From Acidobacteriota bacterium (GTDB lineage Bacteria > Acidobacteriota > Terriglobia > Acidiferrales > 2-02-FULL-67-57), in contig JBBIPK010000001.1 in assembly GCA_037442885.1 (NCBI GenBank), positions 6,431 through 70,430 of the forward strand: DNA of 64,000 nucleotides. The letters run 5' to 3'. The notes under the pieces were generated by a model. The model was given only the letters and a program-made list of their open reading frames with translations, searched no databases and was not told the origin of the DNA. Position 1 is the stretch's first letter; every line of letters starts with the position of its first letter. Position numbers and translations under genes: made by a program. Of this stretch, positions 12,207 to 55,019 are shown one piece after another.

Positions 12207-13799
12207 CTGCCATCGAACCGCGACATCGTCATCATCGGCGGCGGCCATAACGCCCTGGTGGCAGCCTTCTACCTGGCGCGGGCGGGCCTGAAGCCACTGG
12301 TGCTGGAACGGCGCCCGGTGGTGGGCGGCGCGGCAGTCACCGAGGAGTTCCATCCCGGCTTCAAATGCTCCACGCTTGCTCATACCGGCGGACCACTCCG
12401 TGCTGACATCCTGCGCGACCTCCAGCTTGCGCGACACGGGCTGCGACTCGTGGCGCCGAATCCCTTGGTATTCGCTCCGTCGCTGGACGGTCGGGCCTTG
12501 CTTCTTCATAACGACCCCGCCCGAACGGCCGAGGAAATCGCCCGGCACTCGCGTGCCGATGCGGAACGATACGTCCAGTTTGAACGCGCGGTGGGCTACA
12601 TCGGCGGCGTGCTCCGGCGGCTGATGGCCGCGACACCCCCGGCCATCGAGAATCCCCGCGCCGCCGACCTCTGGAATTTGCTCCAGACGGCGCGGGGAAT
12701 CCGCAGCCTGGGAAAGAAAGACATGTTGCGGCTGCTACGCTGGGCACCGATGCCTGCGGCCGACCTAGTGGCGGAGTGGTTTGATACGGAGCTGCTCCAG
12801 GCGACGCTGGCGGCGCGCGCCATCCACGGGACGTCCTTCGGCCCCATTTCGCCTGGGACGGGGATTGTCCTCCTGCTGCGCGCTGCGGCCGAAGGTCATC
12901 CGGCCGGGACAGCCGTTTTCCCCCAAGGCGGGATGGGAGCCCTGACGCAGGCATTGGCGGCGGCAGCGCGGCAGGCGGGCGCTGAAGTCCGCACCGGAGC
13001 CGAGGTGGCCCGAATCCTGGTGAAGAACGGGGCCGTCGCCGGAGTTGCACTGGCGAGCGGCGAGGAAATCGCGGCCAAGACCGTCATCTCCGGTGTCGAT
13101 CCCCCGCGGACGTTCCTGCGGCTGATTGATCCCGTGCACCTGCAGCCGAGTTTTCTGCTCCGGATGCAGAGCTACCGCTGTCAGGGCAGCGTGGCCAAAG
13201 TCAATCTCGCCCTGGCGGGTCTGCCGAGCTTTGCGGGACTGCCCGCCCGGGGCGCTGACGGGCGCGGGTTCGCGGGGCGCATCCACATTGGCCCCAGCAT
13301 TGAGTATCTCGAGCGCGCGCACGACGAGGCGAAGTATGGTGACTTTTCCCGGCAACCGTACCTGGACGTGCTCATCCCCTCGGTGGCCGACCCTTCGCTG
13401 GCGCCCGCCGGCCAGCACGTGGTGTCTGTCCACATGCAGTTTGCCCCGTTTCGACTGAAGAACGGAGATTGGAACGCGCAGCGCGCAGCTCTGGGAGACG
13501 CGGTGGTGAAAACGCTGGCGGCCTATGCGCCCGACCTGCCCGGCTTGATTCTCCACCGGCAGGTCATCACACCGCTCGACCTCGAGCAGACCTATGGACT
13601 GACCGGCGGCCACATCTTTCACGGCGAGTTGTCGCTCGACCAGCTCTACGCCACGCGTCCGCTGCTGGGCTGGGCGCGCTACCGCACCCCTGTCGGCGGG
13701 CTCTATCTCTGCGGCTCGGGCACCCATCCGGGTATAGGCTTGACGGGAGCTTCCGGCGCCAACGCCGCCCGCGAAATCCTCAAAGACCTGCGCCGCTAG
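12207..13799 (+). CDS. Phytoene desaturase (CrtI)-family NAD(P)/FAD-dependent oxidoreductase, paralog 2 (start uncertain)
   Basis: 'DIVIIGGGHNALV' and 'LYLCGSGTHPGIGLTGASG', collinear with paralog 1. No ATG/GTG/TTG sits at the homologous N-terminus. CTG 12207 gives 'PSNRDIVIIGGG', which matches 'MPSRYDAIIIGGG'. The alternative canonical start is GTG 12105, which overlaps paralog 1 by 100 nt. Confidence 0.75.
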   Translation: MPSNRDIVIIGGGHNALVAAFYLARAGLKPLVLERRPVVGGAAVTEEFHPGFKCSTLAHTGGPLRADILRDLQLARHGLRLVAPNPLVFAPSLDGRALLLHNDPARTAEEIARHSRADAERYVQFERAVGYIGGVLRRLMAATPPAIENPRAADLWNLLQTARGIRSLGKKDMLRLLRWAPMPAADLVAEWFDTELLQATLAARAIHGTSFGPISPGTGIVLLLRAAAEGHPAGTAVFPQGGMGALTQALAAAARQAGAEVRTGAEVARILVKNGAVAGVALASGEEIAAKTVISGVDPPRTFLRLIDPVHLQPSFLLRMQSYRCQGSVAKVNLALAGLPSFAGLPARGADGRGFAGRIHIGPSIEYLERAHDEAKYGDFSRQPYLDVLIPSVADPSLAPAGQHVVSVHMQFAPFRLKNGDWNAQRAALGDAVVKTLAAYAPDLPGLILHRQVITPLDLEQTYGLTGGHIFHGELSLDQLYATRPLLGWARYRTPVGGLYLCGSGTHPGIGLTGASGANAAREILKDLRR

Positions 13800-46439: not shown

Positions 46440-47665
46440 CAGCGCACATACCGTCCCAGGATGTCCATGTCCTTGTCACCGCGGCCGGAGAGATTGAGAA
46501 CGACGATGTCGCTCTTTTTCATTCTTGGCGCGCGCGCGATCAATTCGGCCAGGGCGTGGGCCGGCTCCAGTGCCGGGATGATTCCTTCCTGCTTGGCCAG
46601 GACGCGTGCAGCTTCCAGAGCCGCTTCGTCTCTCACGGCGGCGTACTCCACGCGGCCCTGCGCATAGAGATAGGCGTGTTCGGGCCCGACGGCGGGGTAG
46701 TCGAGGCCAGCGGAGATACTGTGCGTCGTTGCGATCTGCCCGTTCGGGTCCTGCAACACATAGGTATACGTGCCATGCAGAACCCCGGGCCGGACGCCGT
46801 TGTTGCCCGCTTTATGCAAAGCGAGGCGAGAAGCGTGCTCGCCTAGCGCCGTGCCGCGGCCACCGGCTTCGACCCCAACGATCTTTACTCCGGGCTCACC
46901 CAAGAACTCGTAGAAAAGGCCGAGGGCATTCGACCCGCCACCCACACAGGCGAAAAGATAGGTCGGGAGGCGTTTTTCCACTCTCCGAAGTTGCGCGCGG
47001 GTTTCGCGGCCGATGACCGACTGGAAGTCACGGACGAGCATCGGATAGGGGTGGGCGCCGCAGACAGACCCCAGCAGGTAGTGTGAGCTGGCCACGTTGG
47101 TGACCCAGTCCCGCATGGCTTCGTTGATGGCATCCTTGAGGGTGCGACTGCCCGCTCCCACGCCAATGACTTCCGCCCCCAGCATCCGCATGCGCTCAAC
47201 GTTCAGCCGTTGGCGCGCCATATCTTCTTCGCCCATATAGACCGTGCAGGAGAGACCCAGCCGGGCGGCGACGCTGGCGGTGGCCACGCCGTGCTGGCCA
47301 GCGCCGGTTTCGGCCACCAGGCGTCGCTTGCGCATGCGGACGGCAAGCAGGCCCTGGCCGAGGCAGTTGTTGATCTTGTGGGCACCTGTATGCAAGAGGT
47401 CCTCTCGCTTCAGATAGATGCGCGGGCCCCCGAGATGGCGCGTGAGATTCTCAGCGAAGAACAGCGGTGTAGGACGCCCGGCAAAGTCACGCAGCAGGGC
47501 TCGCAGAGCTACTTGGAAGCGGCGGTCAGACCGCGCATGCAGGTAGACAGACTCAAGCTCCTCGAGCGGGCTGACGAGTGTCTCCGGCACGAAGCGACCC
47601 CCAAACGCACCGAAGTGCCCGCGTTCGTCGGGTAGCGTTCCTTTCGCGATGCGAGCCATCCTCAT
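46439..47665 (-). CDS. trpB: Tryptophan synthase beta chain
   Basis: '[11 protein letters not shown]' (PLP lysine), 'GGGSNA' and '[10 protein letters not shown]'. Confidence 0.95.
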
Positions 47666-48087
47666 TGCCTGCTGCTGCCTTCCTGTCCTGCCGCGGGTCG
47701 GGTGAGTGTGCGCAGGTAGTTCACCAGGTGCCAGCGCTGCCGGGGTCGCAACGTGCGCGCATAGCCCGGCATCAAGTTACGCCCCTCGCTAATCTTCCAG
47801 AACAATTCTCCATCGGTCATTTCCTTCATCAGCGGGTCCGCCAGGTTTCCCGGCGAGTCGGGAAGCCGGCTGACCCAGGGGCCGTCGCCGCGCCCCTGCT
47901 CGCCGTGGCAGGCGAGACAGTAATTGCGGTACAGTTTCCGGCCTTCCGCCACCGAGCTGGGTGACGAATGCGTCGGATTCCGCAGCGCGCGGGCTTCGCC
48001 AGGAGCTTGCCAGGCTTGCGTCCCCGCCGAGCTGGCCGCGGCCAGACCCACAAACAAACCCAGCAGGAACACCGCAGTTACTCTCAT
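47662..48087 (-). CDS. Secreted monoheme c-type cytochrome (class I-like) embedded in the trp operon
   Basis: Signal peptide '[25 protein letters not shown]', heme motif 'CLACHG', and a distal 'NLMPGY'. There are ATGA overlaps with the trpF stop (48084-87) and the trpB start (47662-65). The track ORF's 90-aa N-terminal extension is rejected. Confidence 0.75.
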
Positions 48088-48713
48088 AGTGCTGCGGCTG
48101 CTGCCCGCGCCCGACGGATGAACTCGCGCAGGCGCCGGTGGTCTTTCTTGCCTGGACGCCGCTCGACGCCAGTACAGACGTCCACCGCATACGGCCGCAC
48201 GGTCGTGATGGCCTCTTCTACATTCTCTACGGTCAGGCCACCGGCAAGGATAATGCGCCCATAGGCACGGGCCTGACGCGCCCTCTTCCAGTCGAACTGT
48301 TTTCCCGTTCCCCCTCGCTTGCCCGTGACCTGGGTATCCAGCAGGAACGCCGCACAACCGTTGTAGGCTTTCAGGGTCTGCGGGCGGAAGCGTGCTCCCA
48401 CAGAGAAGGCTTTGATAACCGCAAGGGGAGCTAGCATGGCCACGTCGGCAGGAAGCTCATCTCCGTGGAGCTGGACGGTGTGGATGTCGCAGCGCGCGGC
48501 CACGGTCTGGATGACGGTGCGTGACTCGTTCACAAACAATCCGACTGGAGTGACAAAGGGAGGGAGCTGGGCGATGATCTGCTCGGCGTCGGCGGGTTCG
48601 ATGTAACGAGGGCTGGAGGGATAGAAATTGAAGCCGAGCGCATCCGCACCCGCAGCGATCGCCGCCAGGGCGTCCTCTGCGTTCGTGATTCCACATACTT
48701 TGATGCGCACCAT
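48084..48713 (-). CDS. trpF: Phosphoribosylanthranilate isomerase
   Basis: 'IKVCGITNAEDA' and 'ILAGGLTVENV'. The start is ATG 48713, overlapping the trpC stop. Confidence 0.9.
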   Translation of the reverse strand: MVRIKVCGITNAEDALAAIAAGADALGFNFYPSSPRYIEPADAEQIIAQLPPFVTPVGLFVNESRTVIQTVAARCDIHTVQLHGDELPADVAMLAPLAVIKAFSVGARFRPQTLKAYNGCAAFLLDTQVTGKRGGTGKQFDWKRARQARAYGRIILAGGLTVENVEEAITTVRPYAVDVCTGVERRPGKKDHRRLREFIRRARAAAAAL

Positions 48714-49695: not shown

Positions 49696-49771
49696 GGCGG
49701 TATCGTCTAGAGGCCTAGGACGCTAGATTCTCAATCTAGAAACCCGGGTTCAAATCCCGGTACCGCTACCA
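49696..49771 (+). tRNA. tRNA-Glu (anticodon CUC), CCA encoded
   Basis: Hand-folded cloverleaf: acceptor GGCGGTA/TACCGCT, D-arm GTCT-AGAGGCCT-AGGAC, anticodon stem CTAGA/TCTAG with loop TTCTCAA, T-arm CCGGG-TTCAAAT-CCCGG, then A-CCA. The D-arm is typical of bacterial tRNA-Glu. Confidence 0.9.
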
Positions 49772-49804: not shown

Positions 49805-50059
49805 TTATTGCACTTCGCGGCGAGAGAGCAGTTCGGGGGGCAGGACTTTGACGATGTTGGTGGACTGGACGATGTAGACGGGATTGCCCTGGGGATCACG
49901 CTCGTTGGTCTTGAGAATACTGGAGACAACGAGTTTGATGCGCACGGTGTAGCCATCTTCCACCAAGTATTCATTCCAGTCTTCGCGGCCGGTGCGGAAT
50001 TCCATGTCCTCGGCCTCGATGGTGCGGTCGCCGATGTTGATGCGAGTGCGTCGTGCCAC
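49805..50059 (-). CDS. Hypothetical soluble 84-aa protein, last gene of the HEAT-GT2-GGDEF operon
   Basis: An ATG ORF starts 20 nt downstream of the GGDEF gene stop. Its sequence looks beta-rich ('YTVRIKLVVSSILK', 'PVYIVQSTNIVKV'). No motif was recognised. Confidence 0.6.
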   Translation of the reverse strand: MARRTRINIGDRTIEAEDMEFRTGREDWNEYLVEDGYTVRIKLVVSSILKTNERDPQGNPVYIVQSTNIVKVLPPELLSRREVQ

Positions 50060-50079
50060 GATGAGCCTCCTCTGTGTCT

Positions 50080-50907
50080 CTAGGTTGATTGCCCGGGATT
50101 GGCCGCTGGCCGAGCGGACGAGCGGCGCGTGGCGAAAACCTGTTTCTCCGCCTCTTCAATCACCGATTCGAGGGTGCGTCCAGAGACGAACGTAGCCGGC
50201 CCGACGGTGATGGTCACGGCGCGGCCCAGGCGCTGCTGGAGATCGGTGCGGGCGGCCAGCGCCTGGTGCAGGCGACGGGTGACGACTTCGGCGCCGGCGT
50301 CGTTGGTTTCCGGCAAGACGATGAGGAACTCGTCGCCCCCGAAGCGGAAGACATAGTCGGAGGTGCGGAGGATGCTCTTGAGCGTGGCTGCCACCTCGCG
50401 CAAGACCTCGTCGCCGATGAAGTGACCGAGTTCCTCGTTGACTCGCCGAAAGTCGTCGATGTCCACCAGCAGAACTGAGAGGGGACGGTTAGCCCGGACT
50501 GCGCGGCGAACCTCCTTGGGGGCCACCTCGTCGAAGAAGCGCCGGTTGTAGGTTTCGGTGAGCGAATCGGTAAGGGCGTGGGCGCGGTGTTCTTCGAGTT
50601 CGAGTTCCTGCTCGAGAGCACGACGACGGAGCTGAGCGAGGGCACGTTTCTTATCGATCAGGTAGATATTGAGCAGGAGCACCAACGCCATGAAGCCGAA
50701 CAGGAGGAGCCAGACAAAGCGCAGGACAAGAGGATTGACGCGCTCATCGGCGCGTGTGGTCAGGTAGACAAAGGTGATGACGCCGCCGGCGAATACGGTA
50801 AGCAGGATCAGAGCTATGGACCACAGTTCCCAGTCACGTTTTTCGAGCTGTTCAAAAGTATCGCCCGCGCGGCGTGCTGGAGGGGAGCCCGGAGGTTGTG
50901 TTGCCAC
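50080..50907 (-). CDS. Membrane-anchored diguanylate cyclase (GGDEF domain with I-site)
   Basis: Two TM helices, a coiled linker, then 'RTSDYVFRFGGDEF' (an RxxD I-site 5 residues before GGDEF). The start is set at GTG 50907 with SD GGAGAG 7 nt upstream. The track start at 50994 would overlap the GT2 gene by 52 nt. Confidence 0.85.
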   Translation of the reverse strand: MATQPPGSPPARRAGDTFEQLEKRDWELWSIALILLTVFAGGVITFVYLTTRADERVNPLVLRFVWLLLFGFMALVLLLNIYLIDKKRALAQLRRRALEQELELEEHRAHALTDSLTETYNRRFFDEVAPKEVRRAVRANRPLSVLLVDIDDFRRVNEELGHFIGDEVLREVAATLKSILRTSDYVFRFGGDEFLIVLPETNDAGAEVVTRRLHQALAARTDLQQRLGRAVTITVGPATFVSGRTLESVIEEAEKQVFATRRSSARPAANPGQST

Positions 50908-50942
50908 AGAATATCTCTCCTTACGAGCGGCGGTGGCCTGCC

Positions 50943-52352
50943 TCAGGGACGAACGGGGCGCGTCTGGAATCCGACGCGACGCTGCGCCCCCCACTCGCGC
51001 CGGCCACGCAAATAATCCGCCAAGCCGAGCAGGCGCCAGCCCAACACGAGCTGATGAAATCCAAAATGCTCGACCAGACTGTAGCGAATCAAGCGTGCCA
51101 GTTCACTCCAGAGAGTATAGCGCCGGTAGGTGAATTCTTCCACCAGCACCGCCCAGAGCGAGAGCATCGTTCCCATCAAGAAGGCCAGAATCAGGTACAA
51201 CGTCAGGTAGCGGATACTCAGCCACCCCATCTTGTACGCCACGGGAACGCAGATGAAGCCCGCAATCTCCATGACCGGCGCAACCAGTTCCAGCAGGAAG
51301 TAGGGCAGCACGAGCCAGCCAATCATCCCGTAGCGGAACAGGGCGTCCCGATGCAAGCGGAGGACTTCCGCCAAACCGCGCTGCCAACGGCGACGTTGCC
51401 GCGCAAGCACAGGCCGCGATTCCGGCACCTCTGTCCAGCAGACCGGATCGGGGACAAACAAGATGCGGTAGGACATTCGCTGGTCGCGGCAATAGCGGTG
51501 GACGCGAACGACCACCTCCATGTCTTCGGCCACAGTCTGGCCGGAGTAACCGCCGACGGCGCGCAGAATGTCCGTGCGAAAGGCACCAAAGGCGCCGGAG
51601 ATAATCATCAGGCCGTTGAACCAGCTCCAGCCGAGGCGCCCTTGAAGGAAGCCGCGGAGGTACTCGACAATTTGAAAGACAGTCAGAGGCGAGCGGGGAA
51701 GGCGGATGCGGGTCACGCGGCCACCGGCCACGCTGCAGCCGTTGAGGATTCGCACGATGCCGCTGGAGGCAACGACACGCTCATCCTCGAGCACCGGACG
51801 CATTACGCGCAGCAGTGCGTCCTCCTCCAGCACAGAGTCGGCGTCCACGGAGCAAATCCAGGGCGTGCGGGCCAGGTTGATGCCCGCATTCAGGGCATCA
51901 CTCTTGCCGCCGTTGACCTTGTCGATGACAACCAACCGCGATTCGAGCGTGGAGAGATAAATCCCGCGGATGGGACGCGTCGGAAGCAGTGGATTGAAGG
52001 CGATGCTGGCGCGGCGGAGCGAGAAGCAGCGGATGAGTTCCTCCAGTGTCCCATCTGTGCTGCCATCGTTGATGGCGATGACGGTGAAATCCGGGTAGCG
52101 CAGGCCGAGCAGCGCGCGGATGCTTTCCACGATGGTTTTTTCCTCGTTGTACGCCGGTATCAGCAGGGTGACGGGGGGTGAGACAACGGAGGCGGCTTGG
52201 CGGTCGAAAGCGGCCAAGCGGACGCGCAAGGGATGCACGTAGGCTCCCCAAACGGAGGCCACCAGCAAGAAGAGATAGAAAACGTGAAGGACAATGTAGA
52301 AGACCAGGATGATGAAGTTCGAGAAGAGAAGAAGGAACTCAGGGCCGCTCAT
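50943..52352 (-). CDS. Integral-membrane processive-type family 2 glycosyltransferase (PgaC/IcaA/NfrB-N-like polysaccharide synthase)
   Basis: N-terminal TM helix, 'PAYNEE', 'NDGSTDGT', 'VDADS', 'AEDME', 'QRRRWQRG' (the Q-x-x-R-W motif), and three to four C-terminal TM helices. The start is ATG 52352 (MSGPEFLLL) with GAGG 6 nt upstream. The first 339 codons of the 808-aa track ORF are a frame shadow of the HEAT gene. Confidence 0.88.
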   Translation of the reverse strand: MSGPEFLLLFSNFIILVFYIVLHVFYLFLLVASVWGAYVHPLRVRLAAFDRQAASVVSPPVTLLIPAYNEEKTIVESIRALLGLRYPDFTVIAINDGSTDGTLEELIRCFSLRRASIAFNPLLPTRPIRGIYLSTLESRLVVIDKVNGGKSDALNAGINLARTPWICSVDADSVLEEDALLRVMRPVLEDERVVASSGIVRILNGCSVAGGRVTRIRLPRSPLTVFQIVEYLRGFLQGRLGWSWFNGLMIISGAFGAFRTDILRAVGGYSGQTVAEDMEVVVRVHRYCRDQRMSYRILFVPDPVCWTEVPESRPVLARQRRRWQRGLAEVLRLHRDALFRYGMIGWLVLPYFLLELVAPVMEIAGFICVPVAYKMGWLSIRYLTLYLILAFLMGTMLSLWAVLVEEFTYRRYTLWSELARLIRYSLVEHFGFHQLVLGWRLLGLADYLRGRREWGAQRRVGFQTRPVRP

Positions 52353-53433
52353 CCGATGCCTCAACGGGGAAACCGATGACTTTCTCAATCGCGCGCCGGG
52401 TGCGCGCGTCCAGGTAGGGGGAGCCGAGGAGCTCCACCAAGTTAAGGTGCCCTGTCGGCGGCAGGGATCTTGCCACCAACTCCAGCAAGACCAGGCGCAG
52501 CTTCGTGTCCGGATGCATCTCCAGGGCGTAGAGGACAGGAGCGTAAGCGCCTGCCCAGATGAGCCGTGAGACGAGTGCCCGGCTCTGTTCGCGAACGTAG
52601 GGCAGAGGCGAGTTGACTCGATTGATCGCCTCCCAGGTAATGCCGCGCCATTCGAGCTCGGAAATAAGTGATTGCAGCGCGAATTGGTCAGGGGCACCTT
52701 CTCGCAAGAGGTCAAGGAGGGCAATCGGGTCACGCCAGAGCAGATAGAGCGCGCCCGTGGCTTTGTGACGGACCTCGAAGTCCGGATCGCGAACAGCGAG
52801 GGCGAGGGCTTCGTGCGCGCGGTGGTCACCGAGAGCGCCCAGCGCGCCCGCAGCCTGCAGACGTACGGTCCAGACGGGATCGCGAAGTCGTTCCACCAGA
52901 ACGGACAGGGCTTGCGCAGAACCAGAGCGTCCCAGTGCCCAGGCGGCCTTGGTGCGAACCTCCGGGTCGGGGTCATCGGCCAAGGGCAGGAGACGTTCCA
53001 GCAAGGCGGGCGTGCCAACCTCGCCCAGGGCCGCGGCAATGACCATGCGGACGCGTGGCTCGGGATGGAACGCGTGGCGGAGGAGACGCTCGGGCTCGGG
53101 ACGCCCGCACGAGATGAGCGCAGCCCAGACCATTCGCCACGCCGTGTCCTTGACGGCAGGAAGAACCTCGACCAAAGCGTCCACTGCTTCCGGGACGCCC
53201 ATAAGCTCAAGCGCACGCAGGGCGGCCACTCGCAGCTCTCTGTTTTCGCTGCGGAGAAGACGAAGGAGATCCGGTAGGGCTTCCTGCACCTGCATGCGCC
53301 CGAGGATGATCGCCGATTCCGCCTGCTGCCAAGGGGGGCCGTGGCGAATGCGGGTGAGACGATCCACATGAAGACGCCAATGACGGAACAGATGGATCAG
53401 TTTGCGGCGCTCGTCCGGCGCGGCATCGAGCAA
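52339..53433 (-). CDS. HEAT-repeat (PBS-lyase type) protein, probably membrane-anchored; the true start lies upstream of 53433
   Basis: Repeated 'xPEVRxxAAxALGxxGxxxAxxxLxxxLxD' units (for example 'DPDPEVRTKAAWALGRSG' and 'DPDFEVRHKATGALY'). 53433 is a TTG. The same frame stays open to 53668 and encodes 'LVVLILLGLLNLAVLLIVSLRRFFKHW' with no ATG/GTG/TTG. The gene overlaps the GT2 start by 14 nt. Confidence 0.8.
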   Translation of the reverse strand: MLDAAPDERRKLIHLFRHWRLHVDRLTRIRHGPPWQQAESAIILGRMQVQEALPDLLRLLRSENRELRVAALRALELMGVPEAVDALVEVLPAVKDTAWRMVWAALISCGRPEPERLLRHAFHPEPRVRMVIAAALGEVGTPALLERLLPLADDPDPEVRTKAAWALGRSGSAQALSVLVERLRDPVWTVRLQAAGALGALGDHRAHEALALAVRDPDFEVRHKATGALYLLWRDPIALLDLLREGAPDQFALQSLISELEWRGITWEAINRVNSPLPYVREQSRALVSRLIWAGAYAPVLYALEMHPDTKLRLVLLELVARSLPPTGHLNLVELLGSPYLDARTRRAIEKVIGFPVEASDERP

Positions 53434-53685
53434 GCGGCGGAGGAGCTCCTGCTCGAGCGCCTTCCGGTTTGAAAACAGAGGGATCGGCCAGCCCTTGTCG
53501 AGCCGTTGGAGACTGTTCTGGATGTTCTCCGCCGCTTGCCGGCGTTGGTCATCGAGAGAGATGAAGTACCAGTGCTTGAAGAAGCGGCGGAGGCTGACAA
53601 TCAGGAGAACCGCCAGGTTGAGCAGGCCGAGCAGGATGAGAACGACTAGCGTGGGCGAACCTCGCTCGTCCTAGAAGATGAGGGA

Positions 53686-53691
53686 ATTATA
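53686..53691 (-). promoter_or_regulatory. Candidate -10 box (TATAAT) for the HEAT-GT2-GGDEF operon
   Basis: A perfect minus-strand TATAAT, 15 nt upstream of the in-frame stop that bounds the HEAT ORF, in the divergent gap to the TPR/beta-barrel gene. Confidence 0.35.
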
Positions 53692-53747
53692 TGTGCAGAG
53701 AGTGCTGGCAGCAACGCCCCGGATTGCCTGCCGCCAGATTTCCGACT

Positions 53748-55019
53748 ATGATGCGCAGAATTGCTTTGAGTCGCGGCACTGCTCACACCACCGGAATAGG
53801 GTCGGTTCTCACCCTCGCTCTTCTCTCATCCTTTCTTGTCGCGCCCGCCCGGGCGCAATCCGAACGTGCGGAGCAAGTCGCGCGGGCGCTGGCGCACGTG
53901 CAGGCCCAAGAATACGACACCGCACTGACCATCTTCCGCGAACTCGCGCAGCAGAATTCGCATGACTATGAAGCGCGGAACTGGGTGGCGCGCCTGGAAA
54001 GCTGGAAGGGAAATCACCTCGAGGCGGAGCGGCTCTACCGCGCCGTGCTGGATGAACAACCCCAGAACAAAGAAGCAGAACTGGGGCTAGCGGACGTGCT
54101 GGCCTGGCAGGGACGCCACCAGGAGGCAACGGAGCGGTTGGGAGCGCTCTACGCGCGTGATCCGAAGGATGTGGAGGTGCTGTTGCGGCTGGGGCGTCTT
54201 TCCCGTTGGCGCGGCGACCGCAAGGCAGCCCTGCGCTACTACCGCGAAGCGCTGGTCGCTGACCCTCGCAACCAGGAAGCGCACGACGCTTACCAGATCC
54301 TACTTGACGAAACCAACTACCGACTGGAGACAGGCTACGGGTACGAACACTTCAACTTCACCACAGGCACGCATGCGCCCTATGTGGAACTGCTGTTCAC
54401 CGACAATCGCCGGCTCACGCTGCTGGGACGCGCCGAGTATCAGCGCAAGTTCGCTGCCGACAACACACGCTTCAGTTTCGGGGCGACGCGGAAGCTCGGT
54501 GAGCGCACCTGGTTGCGCGGGGAAGTCGGCTTTGCCCCGGGCAGCGACGTGCTGGCGCGCCAAGACTATCAGGTGGAAATGTCGCAGCAGATCTGGCCGA
54601 GAGTGACAGCCGGAACGGGGTATCGCTTTCTGGCATTCGGCGTAGCAGACGCACACGCACTGACCGTGCTGACGGACTGGGACCTGCGGTCAAATCTCCA
54701 TCTCTCCCTGCGTTACCTGCCGGCCCGGACGCGGTTTGATACGCTGCCCGGGGCAGTCTGGAACCACTCTGGCTGGGCGCGGCTGACCTGGGACGTGAAG
54801 AAGACTTGGAGCCCCTACGTCGTATTTGCCGTCGGCTCGGAGAGTTTTTCGGCACTCTCGGCAGACTTGCTGGGGCGATTCGCTGCGCAGACGTATGGAC
54901 TTGGTACCACCGTGCACATCAGACGGGACTTCGGGTTTCGCGTCGGCTACTTCCATCAGAACCGGACGCAAGGGCGGCGGCAAGACAGCCTGACCCTGGC
55001 CTACTTCATGCGCTTCTAG
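53748..55019 (+). CDS. Outer-membrane protein: N-terminal TPR repeats plus a C-terminal YaiO/PgaA-like beta-barrel
   Basis: Signal peptide 'LTLALLSSFLVAPARAQ'. There are about four TPR units ('YDTALTIFRELAQQNSHDYEARNWVA', 'EAERLYRAVLDEQPQNKEA', and others). The C-terminal half has alternating amphipathic strands and ends 'LAYFMRF' (terminal Phe). The start is set at ATG 53748. Confidence 0.8.
   Translation: MMRRIALSRGTAHTTGIGSVLTLALLSSFLVAPARAQSERAEQVARALAHVQAQEYDTALTIFRELAQQNSHDYEARNWVARLESWKGNHLEAERLYRAVLDEQPQNKEAELGLADVLAWQGRHQEATERLGALYARDPKDVEVLLRLGRLSRWRGDRKAALRYYREALVADPRNQEAHDAYQILLDETNYRLETGYGYEHFNFTTGTHAPYVELLFTDNRRLTLLGRAEYQRKFAADNTRFSFGATRKLGERTWLRGEVGFAPGSDVLARQDYQVEMSQQIWPRVTAGTGYRFLAFGVADAHALTVLTDWDLRSNLHLSLRYLPARTRFDTLPGAVWNHSGWARLTWDVKKTWSPYVVFAVGSESFSALSADLLGRFAAQTYGLGTTVHIRRDFGFRVGYFHQNRTQGRRQDSLTLAYFMRF

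Follow-up and report, generated by a model that had tools for sequence, protein, structure and literature searches.

A conserved HEAT-repeat partner of a membrane glycosyltransferase in a probable exopolysaccharide synthase cluster of an Acidobacteriota bacterium

Here, we describe a five-gene cluster that centers on a HEAT-repeat protein and a membrane family 2 glycosyltransferase (GT2) and lies in a 64,000-nucleotide stretch of contig JBBIPK010000001.1 (assembly GCA_037442885.1) from an Acidobacteriota bacterium; the whole stretch is called the window below, and its own numbering is used. On the minus strand, the HEAT-repeat gene (52339..53652 including an upstream membrane helix, 52339-53433 from the first canonical start; HEAT_2, E 3e-46) is followed by the gene of the 469-aa GT2 with an ATG start (50943..52352; Glyco_tranf_2_3/Glycos_transf_2, E ~8e-22), by that of a 275-aa membrane-anchored GGDEF protein, i.e., a predicted diguanylate cyclase (50080..50907; GGDEF, PF00990, E 2e-38), and by that of an 84-aa all-beta protein (49805..50059) with no Pfam or NCBIfam match. 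The fifth gene is transcribed divergently on the plus strand (53748..55019) and encodes a protein with a signal peptide, tetratricopeptide repeats (TPR), a YaiO-type barrel and a C-terminal Phe. The GT2 start and the HEAT stop overlap by 14 nt, the GT2 gene is separated from the GGDEF gene by 35 nt (counted from the GTG at 50907), and a further 20 nt lie between the GGDEF gene and the 84-aa gene. An earlier, sequence-only reading had given this gene order and these spacings, and all five open reading frames (ORFs) were reproduced by ORF list and frame analysis. It had also noted the absence of PilZ, MshEN, PgaD-like and PgaB-like parts; our profile searches of the five proteins (Pfam plus NCBIfam, E <= 0.1) agree, with no match to PilZ, MshEN, PgaD or deacetylase families and no canonical PilZ or MshEN domain in any of the five. 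The arrangement is not due to chance: relatives with GT2 identities of 93%, 76%, ~65% and 63% show it as well. With moderate confidence, we read the cluster as a synthase-dependent exopolysaccharide system of a widespread HEAT-GT2(-YaiO barrel) family, working by the mechanism proposed further below.

By its motifs and its predicted fold, the GT2 looks like a membrane-embedded processive synthase. NDGSTDGT, VDADS, AEDME and QRRRW were read directly in the translation, i.e., the full processive-synthase set (DGSTDG, DAD, ED, QRRRW) that had been claimed before, and the catalytic positions (D, DxD, ED, QxxRW) are invariant across 29 relatives; the window protein also carries the family signatures FQIVEYLRGF and DPVCWTEVP. 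The top NCBIfam match is PgaC_IcaA (TIGR03937; 135 bits against a cutoff of 422), and the closest characterized sequence relative is E. coli PgaC with 29% identity over 315 aa (E 1e-31). E. coli YaiP is likewise 29% identical (E 7e-16), the similarity to E. coli NfrB is not significant (E 0.28), and BcsA is the closest sequence with a solved structure over most of the GT2 length (E 2e-7). The family is large: among 8000 candidates scored, 7884 proteins are homologous at E <= 1e-20. An AlphaFold2 (AF2) model built on 29 relatives (pLDDT 87, pTM 0.87) has one N-terminal transmembrane helix, a GT-A domain, interface helices and four C-terminal helices. When this model was compared with the PDB by Foldseek, hyaluronan synthases came first (E 2e-17, TM 0.65), then Chs1 and BcsA, and the alignment to hyaluronan, chitin and cellulose synthases spans the whole length. 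The model places the GT2 in the membrane-embedded synthase class; clustering with lipid-carrier transferases, which would have spoken against the sequence-only reading, was not found, the nearest proteins being PgaC/IcaA, hyaluronan synthases and chitin synthases. Relative to PgaC, the GT2 has a C-terminal tail (YLRGxxxWGxxxRxGF) and two family-specific insertions. The Arg-rich tail was considered as a cyclic di-GMP (c-di-GMP) site and rejected; it is kept in the entire family, the archaeon included, and hence is no particular feature of the c-di-GMP-linked members. Long homologues (P0058, L076, L031, P0110) were searched for a regulatory domain naturally fused to the GT2, and no additional Pfam domain was found in them.

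The HEAT protein is indeed a conserved, translationally coupled partner of the synthase, and the overlap of its gene with the GT2 gene is also seen in relatives. Its homologues have a single N-terminal transmembrane helix followed by Arg/Lys, and in the window the helix is followed by the positively charged stretch RRFFKH; by the positive-inside rule, the solenoid is predicted to be cytoplasmic. Please note that the membrane anchor assigned by the sequence-only reading stands only in part: the helix (TLVVLILLGLLNLAVLLIVSL, from 53652; 53590-53652) is read in frame shortly after a TAG stop (53671-53673), yet no ATG, GTG or TTG precedes it, and the first canonical start, a TTG at 53433, comes 73 codons downstream. 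A GAGG occurs 7 nt before an ACG codon (53650-53652). The same start problem is found in the 93% relative (L086), where the gene caller chose a TTG within the helix. A non-canonical start, a sequencing error and an unanchored variant are all possible.

To see how far the pair extends, loci were surveyed with one genome per species and two family-specific peptide patterns, which gave at least 600 stretches, 590 of them confirmed; 80 loci were kept, and their six-frame ORFs were searched with the window proteins. The HEAT-GT2 family spans more than 10 phyla plus haloarchaea, with at least 590 species loci matched, and the surveyed phyla include Acidobacteriota, Bacteroidota/Ignavibacteria, Actinomycetota, Bacillota (Clostridium, Paenibacillus), Gemmatimonadota, Myxococcota, Desulfobacterota, Pseudomonadota, Chloroflexota and Elusimicrobiota. 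The HEAT gene is immediately upstream of the GT2 gene, usually overlapping, in 71 of the 80 loci, and several of the nine HEAT-less loci are truncated at a contig end. A receiver (REC) gene is found within 3 kb at 45/80 loci and directly upstream of HEAT at 28/80, a barrel homologue within 5 kb at 28/80, and a GGDEF gene within 3 kb at 9/80, being adjacent at 5/80. In Pfam, the upstream neighbor of HEAT matched REC at 27 and TPR at 20 of 61 loci; the gene downstream of the GT2 is variable, with GGDEF in just 3/63. The window cluster carries the features of the family, i.e., the overlap, the transmembrane helix and the QxVEYLRxF and DPxCWTExP signatures, and its subclade (the four relatives named above) retains the barrel/HEAT-GT2-GGDEF arrangement. 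A GGDEF gene directly after the GT2 gene is, among the surveyed loci, restricted to a small Terriglobia subclade that includes the window. The neighborhood conservation on which the sequence-only reading had staked its case holds for the HEAT-GT2 pair and, in diderms, for the barrel, but not for the GGDEF gene, which is confined to that subclade, nor for the 84-aa gene, which is not tied to the module.

Single examples, taken from annotated records of cultured organisms, illustrate the spread. On the Mesorhizobium ciceri plasmid pMESCI01 (L098; MESCI_RS32005-32015 as the HEAT-GT2 family example), the order is kinase, response regulator, response regulator, YaiO-family barrel, HEAT, GT2 and Hpt, the barrel gene directly preceding HEAT with a 3-nt gap; a plasmid of the haloarchaeon Salinirubellus (L099) has response regulator, HEAT and GT2; and in Emticicia, a response regulator gene is followed by a HEAT-like gene (a sub-threshold match), GT2, TPR and a YaiO barrel gene, the last two genes downstream of the GT2 on the same strand. 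HEAT-GT2 modules are thus seen on large plasmids of rhizobia and of Salinirubellus, and GT2 homologues occur on plasmids of other haloarchaea, Deinococcus, Legionella and Bacteroides finegoldii (hits H1-H14); these locations suggest horizontal spread of the module. In the literature searched, we found no functional study of the HEAT-GT2 pair or of YaiO/YaiP, and as the coverage was incomplete, an existing description is possible; YaiO appears there mainly as a PCR marker.

The longest ORF of the barrel gene begins at 53691, and the likely start, taken after the L086 orthologue, is 53748 (MMRR), giving 423 aa with the C-terminus ...FMRF. The divergent TPR/barrel protein of about 420 aa ending in Phe had been recognized before, and its barrel can now be specified as YaiO-type: Pfam matches are TPR_19/14/16 plus YaiO (4e-10; PF19413 with 40 bits vs 23.9), the NCBIfam model TIGR04390 scores 62 bits vs a cutoff of 32, and E. 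coli YaiO is 25% identical (E 2e-6). That this protein is part of the module, as had been supposed, is borne out in diderms. A barrel homologue is within 5 kb at 22/30 Acidobacteriota loci, usually directly upstream of HEAT with an overlap of ~16 nt, and it was not detected in any Bacillota or Actinomycetota locus of the survey. We presume that the protein is an export porin.

The longest ORF of the GGDEF gene is 50080-50994; the likely start is the GTG at 50907 with the ribosome-binding site AAGGAGAG ahead of it, which gives the 275-aa protein. Its predicted architecture starts with a short N-terminal stretch in the cytoplasm, continues with a hairpin of two helices joined by a short outer loop and with a coiled coil, and ends with the GGDEF domain. 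An intact GGDEF motif and an RxxD inhibitory site (I-site), both reported earlier, were read in the translation, with five residues between the RTSD and GGDEF; upstream, the motifs by which active diguanylate cyclases bind substrate and metal are present too, i.e., DSLTETYNRR and DIDDFRRVNEELGHFIGD (of the DxLT...NRR and DxDxF...GD types). Because GGDEF and the upstream motifs are intact, the window protein is probably an active cyclase as well. The RxxD is found in 69/69 relatives that have both the hairpin and the GGDEF domain, the active site of these 69 being GGDEF in 56, GGDEL in 9 and other variants in 4; two orthologues adjacent to a GT2 gene, L089 (GGDQF) and L079 (AEHEF), have lost the catalytic motif and retained the RxxD. 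In PelD of Pseudomonas, YdaK of B. subtilis and PssE of Listeria, which are membrane-anchored GGDEF proteins in synthase operons, the conserved RxxD binds c-di-GMP and switches the synthase on, and this is a known receptor mode in exopolysaccharide operons. As the motif is invariant in all 69 relatives and kept in two orthologues with decayed active sites, the cyclase's own RxxD I-site is, by this analogy, the best in-cluster candidate for c-di-GMP sensing. The phrase "no recognizable c-di-GMP receptor" used in the sequence-only reading is too strong in this light.

The GGDEF gene directly follows the GT2 gene in L086, L088, L089, L090 and L079, either 8-40 nt after it or with a 4-nt stop overlap (L090), over a GT2 identity range of 93% to 45%. 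The sequence-only reading had taken the cyclase as dedicated and hard-wired into the operon, which is right for its position directly after the GT2 but describes a trait of one Terriglobia subclade and not of the system. In L090-L092 (GT2 ~65% identical), a REC-HD-GYP (HD_5) gene comes after the 84-aa gene (7359-8504 in L090), and these loci likely encode a make-and-break c-di-GMP pair of cyclase and phosphodiesterase; the REC-HD-GYP gene is absent from the window cluster. The hairpin (RDWELWSIALILLTVF...NIYLIDKKR) is also found in 175-aa tandem-hairpin proteins (P0409, P0413, P0416, P0418, P0419) and, in related Terriglobia, fused to a HEAT-like segment (P0420, P0424; locus L101). P0420 has a weak PilZ-like C-terminus (PilZ E 0.009, below the cutoff) and P0424 has no PilZ match; the contig of P0420 is short, with no informative neighbors. 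Together, these proteins suggest that the hairpin may be a reusable membrane-docking module for c-di-GMP parts. In L001/L002 (1-9000), a decayed copy of the module lies amid transposase and resolvase genes, with a 110-aa protein-kinase fragment in place of HEAT and a 132-aa gene after the GT2 that retains just the hairpin of the GGDEF protein. That gene prompted us to consider the hairpin as a general PgaD-like co-subunit, an idea that was rejected, since the hairpin is restricted to this GGDEF family and the other genes downstream of the GT2 are unrelated and mostly non-membrane; L001, a decayed locus ridden with insertion sequences, was discounted as evidence.

Several characterized systems were compared with the window cluster. 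Pga/Ica is like it in GT2 size and motif set, in a small membrane partner by the synthase and in a TPR-plus-barrel porin, and Pga is under post-translational c-di-GMP control. However, the window GT2 stays far below the PgaC_IcaA cutoff given above, PgaD and the PgaB/IcaB deacetylase are missing, the partner consists of a 40-kDa HEAT solenoid in the cytoplasm, carried on one transmembrane helix, instead of a peptide with two such helices, and the barrel is YaiO-type, not PgaA-type (PgaA models 44 and 29 bits vs cutoffs of 367 and 1043); BLASTP of the window proteins against E. coli PgaD, PgaB and PgaA gave nothing significant, and the cluster does not belong to Pga. Nor does it belong to Bcs, as the CelA model scores 51 bits vs 699 and neither PilZ (E <= 0.1) nor BcsB is found. 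The Nfr system (NfrB/NfrA/DgcJ) follows the same logic, with a GT2 synthase, an outer-membrane protein of the TPR-barrel kind and a dedicated membrane cyclase that works locally. NfrB senses c-di-GMP via a C-terminal MshEN domain; that domain is absent from the five proteins, and NfrA has a barrel unrelated by sequence, the window barrel protein matching NfrA at E 0.054 in its TPR part only, so that with the insignificant GT2-NfrB similarity reported above an assignment to Nfr also fails. The window system resembles Pga or Nfr in working, yet it is a member of none of Pga, Bcs and Nfr.

Among loci that pair a YaiO-family barrel with a related membrane GT2, yaiO-yaiX-yaiP-yaiS of E. coli (L095, K-12 380069-384616) is the nearest cousin and the only other such place. 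YaiP has DGSTD, DAD and ED like the window GT2, and RRWRRW where the latter has QRRRW; the yai locus lacks HEAT and cyclase genes, its barrel is without a TPR region, and it adds an acyltransferase (yaiX, interrupted by IS2 in K-12) and a deacetylase. This cryptic locus looks like a remote HEAT-less cousin of the window module. The PelD/YdaK/PssE class shares with the window the membrane-anchored GGDEF protein in a synthase operon and the conserved RxxD; however, its degenerate GGDEF motif is not matched by the window protein, whose motif is intact, and is approached by just the L089 and L079 orthologues, PelD has a GAF domain which the window protein lacks, and the partner synthase and the HEAT subunit also differ. 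The window GGDEF protein may therefore work like this class at most in part. The gene table of the C. perfringens locus NELoc-2, which is linked to necrotic enteritis strains, gives a HEAT repeat protein of 377 aa (CP4_0467) followed by a "chitin synthase" GT2 of 466 aa (CP4_0468) (PMC2879425). Order, sizes and annotations in that table are those of the HEAT-GT2 core, a likeness by annotation and length only, and the locus has neither a barrel (the host being Gram-positive) nor a cyclase; a functional study of these two genes was not found in the literature searched, where this table was the only mention of such a pair.

Taking these observations together, we propose that a nucleotide sugar is polymerized by the inner-membrane GT2, which would thread the chain through a transmembrane channel of its own. 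Most likely, the sugar would be UDP-N-acetylglucosamine or a close relative, as PgaC/IcaA, hyaluronan synthases and chitin synthases are the characterized proteins nearest to the GT2. The HEAT protein would be an obligatory partner, its membrane helix packing against the synthase and its solenoid lying beside the catalytic domain, where it may serve as a scaffold or gate for lineage-specific regulators. In diderms, the TPR-plus-YaiO-type barrel protein would take the chain in the periplasm and pass it over the outer membrane. In most lineages, the input would come from a receiver-domain (phosphorelay) protein encoded just upstream; in the Terriglobia subclade, this input may be replaced or supplemented by the hairpin-anchored diguanylate cyclase with its local supply of c-di-GMP, and once it has bound c-di-GMP, most likely at its RxxD, the GGDEF protein would act on the complex of HEAT and GT2 in the manner of PelD, YdaK or PssE.

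Several points weigh against this proposal. The YaiO-type barrel domain, the putative path of a polysaccharide, is small (~230 aa), and the cluster has no modifying enzyme (deacetylase, acetyltransferase) that would hint at the polymer. The HEAT copy of the window, with no canonical start before its helix, might make an unanchored protein. The I-site may serve plain product inhibition, since 56/69 relatives keep GGDEF intact, as does the window protein, and c-di-GMP could in truth be received by the GT2, by the HEAT protein or by the product of another locus. Finally, the fold matches of the GT2 also include PcManGT, which we take to be a non-processive membrane mannosyltransferase of archaeal origin, so the fold alone is no proof of processivity.

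The last point leads to the view that the GT2 is a non-exporting membrane transferase that decorates a lipid, lipoglycan or protein, with HEAT as a substrate adaptor and the barrel unrelated, and it would be consistent with the good match to PcManGT, with the Gram-positive and archaeal members that have no barrel and with the count of only about five transmembrane helices in the GT2. We consider this improbable: the best full-length fold matches are processive synthases, QRRRW and ED are intact, PgaC/IcaA is nearest in sequence, and the barrel gene usually overlaps HEAT in Acidobacteriota, precedes it in Mesorhizobium and follows the GT2 in Emticicia, a placement that points to export across the outer membrane.

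A second possibility is that the HEAT protein itself is a new c-di-GMP receptor, which activates the synthase on binding the nucleotide made by the neighboring cyclase. Apart from HEAT, the GT2 has no conserved cytoplasmic partner; PilZ and MshEN are absent, and the P0420/P0424 fusions combine HEAT-like modules with c-di-GMP parts in a Terriglobia lineage. Yet the survey found a GGDEF gene near so few of the loci, with receiver genes instead, the pair is also present in a haloarchaeon (to our knowledge, archaea are generally held to lack c-di-GMP signaling), and the positions conserved across the HEAT family are generic repeat residues, no Arg-rich motif being found in this comparison, which was made family-wide only. 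Such a receptor therefore seems unlikely to us. HEAT pairs with the GT2 mostly without GGDEF, beside REC genes and also in a haloarchaeon, and because of this we regard it, on the comparative evidence, as a general subunit regardless of the input signal and not as a dedicated c-di-GMP receptor. The sequence-only reading had offered HEAT as a new co-synthase or c-di-GMP receptor; the conserved partner adjacent to the GT2 is retained from that proposal, and the receptor role is not.

It may also be asked whether the cyclase is a mere neighbor that feeds a general c-di-GMP pool, the synthase being controlled transcriptionally or by a receptor encoded elsewhere. This would fit with the fact that no receptor domain was identified in the cluster and that members of this hairpin-GGDEF family are also encoded apart from GT2 genes, e.g., on the opposite strand in L049 and as 686-aa proteins. 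We doubt it, however, and give it a small chance, as the position of the GGDEF gene after the GT2 is kept over the whole identity range from 93% to 45%. The GGDEF protein has no sensor domain, just a hairpin that is conserved with this GGDEF family, and docking to the membrane complex, as the exopolysaccharide mechanism proposes, fits this better than sensing.

The 84-aa ORF is, judged from sequence, a real gene. It has 77 homologues, mostly of 84 aa and 74-93% identical, those with a named source being from Terriglobia or other Acidobacteria, and 14 synonymous and 4 non-synonymous codon differences separate it from the copy in the 93% relative. It is probably co-transcribed with the module. 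The gene occurs in L093 and L094 without a HEAT, GT2, GGDEF or barrel gene nearby, and it is missing from L088 and L089 (the 76% and 63% GT2 relatives), which retain HEAT-GT2-GGDEF. In L093, it directly faces a block on the aminotransferase side (an aminotransferase, a small ORF and a 262-aa protein), and a similar block flanks the barrel gene in L086; because the gene faces that block directly in L093, the cassette behaves as an insertion or deletion beside a backbone gene. As it is also present where the cassette is absent, the 84-aa protein is probably a syntenic neighbor and not a component of the module. A hidden PilZ was considered for it and rejected, there being no Pfam/NCBIfam match and no fold match; its AF2 model, for which 29 close homologues were used, is of poor quality (pLDDT 66), and no Foldseek match fell below E = 1. 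A profile search with it found 1206 distant relatives at E <= 0.001 with one or two domain copies, and ten of these that were checked had no meaningful Pfam match. The domain family (P0198-P0345) is outside Pfam and has the motif E(D)WNEY..DG..(K)LV...GNP(V)Y.V.S.N; many of the distant relatives are ~150 aa long with two tandem copies, and one follows a weak, sub-threshold PIN match. The idea of the sequence-only reading that this protein is the missing receptor or co-synthase, for which one may cite its place 20 nt from the GGDEF gene on the same strand, its conservation and, in L090-L092, its position between the GGDEF gene and the REC-HD-GYP phosphodiesterase gene, is very unlikely in view of its occurrence without the cassette, its absence from two retained modules, the lack of a PilZ or usable fold match and its more than 1200 distant relatives, often with tandem domains.

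Returning to the proposed exopolysaccharide system, a bolder form of it may be put forward tentatively, and we hold it to be possible rather than probable: the HEAT protein may represent a class of co-subunit new to synthases, in which a cytoplasmic solenoid tethered to the membrane gates a processive GT2 and serves as a universal adaptor for unrelated signals. A phosphorylated receiver (in most phyla and in haloarchaea) or a c-di-GMP-loaded hairpin-GGDEF protein (in Terriglobia) would then converge on HEAT and turn polymer secretion on. The known synthase-dependent secretion systems are few, i.e., those for cellulose, poly-N-acetylglucosamine, alginate, Pel and Nfr, and each has been instructive on the coupling of polymerization, export and second-messenger control. 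The present module points to another family, at least as widespread as the known ones, with a kind of partner not seen in them and with an interchangeable regulatory input, phosphorelay mostly and c-di-GMP here. If the adaptor role is true, the family would be a further major synthase-dependent secretion system for a polymer not yet described. Working the module out could give a new matrix or capsule polymer for the abundant soil Acidobacteriota, a test case for the swapping of signaling inputs on one secretion machine and possibly a novel route by which c-di-GMP or a receiver protein controls a glycosyltransferase. In our opinion, the interest rests more in the family and its HEAT subunit than in the c-di-GMP question as it had been framed.

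As for the remaining features around the cluster, the intergenic region from which the barrel gene and the HEAT-GT2-GGDEF operon diverge (53653..53747) is presumed, from the sequence layout, to be their shared promoter region. Promoter and terminator scans gave matches no more numerous than in shuffled sequence; the single sigma-70-like match in the intergenic region (53724-53752, plus strand) is no better than chance. A convergent tRNA-Glu gene (anticodon CTC; 49696-49771, plus strand) lies between the 84-aa gene and trpC and marks the operon end; it cannot adjoin the 84-aa gene in L093, because the gap from that gene to its downstream neighbor is just 36 nt there. Further on, within the row trpC-trpF-trpB-trpA, an ORF with a CxxCH heme-binding motif (47662-48357, minus strand) stands between trpF and trpB, and the relative L086 has a 137-aa Cytochrom_C gene (12276-12689) at the same place, an odd passenger in a tryptophan operon.

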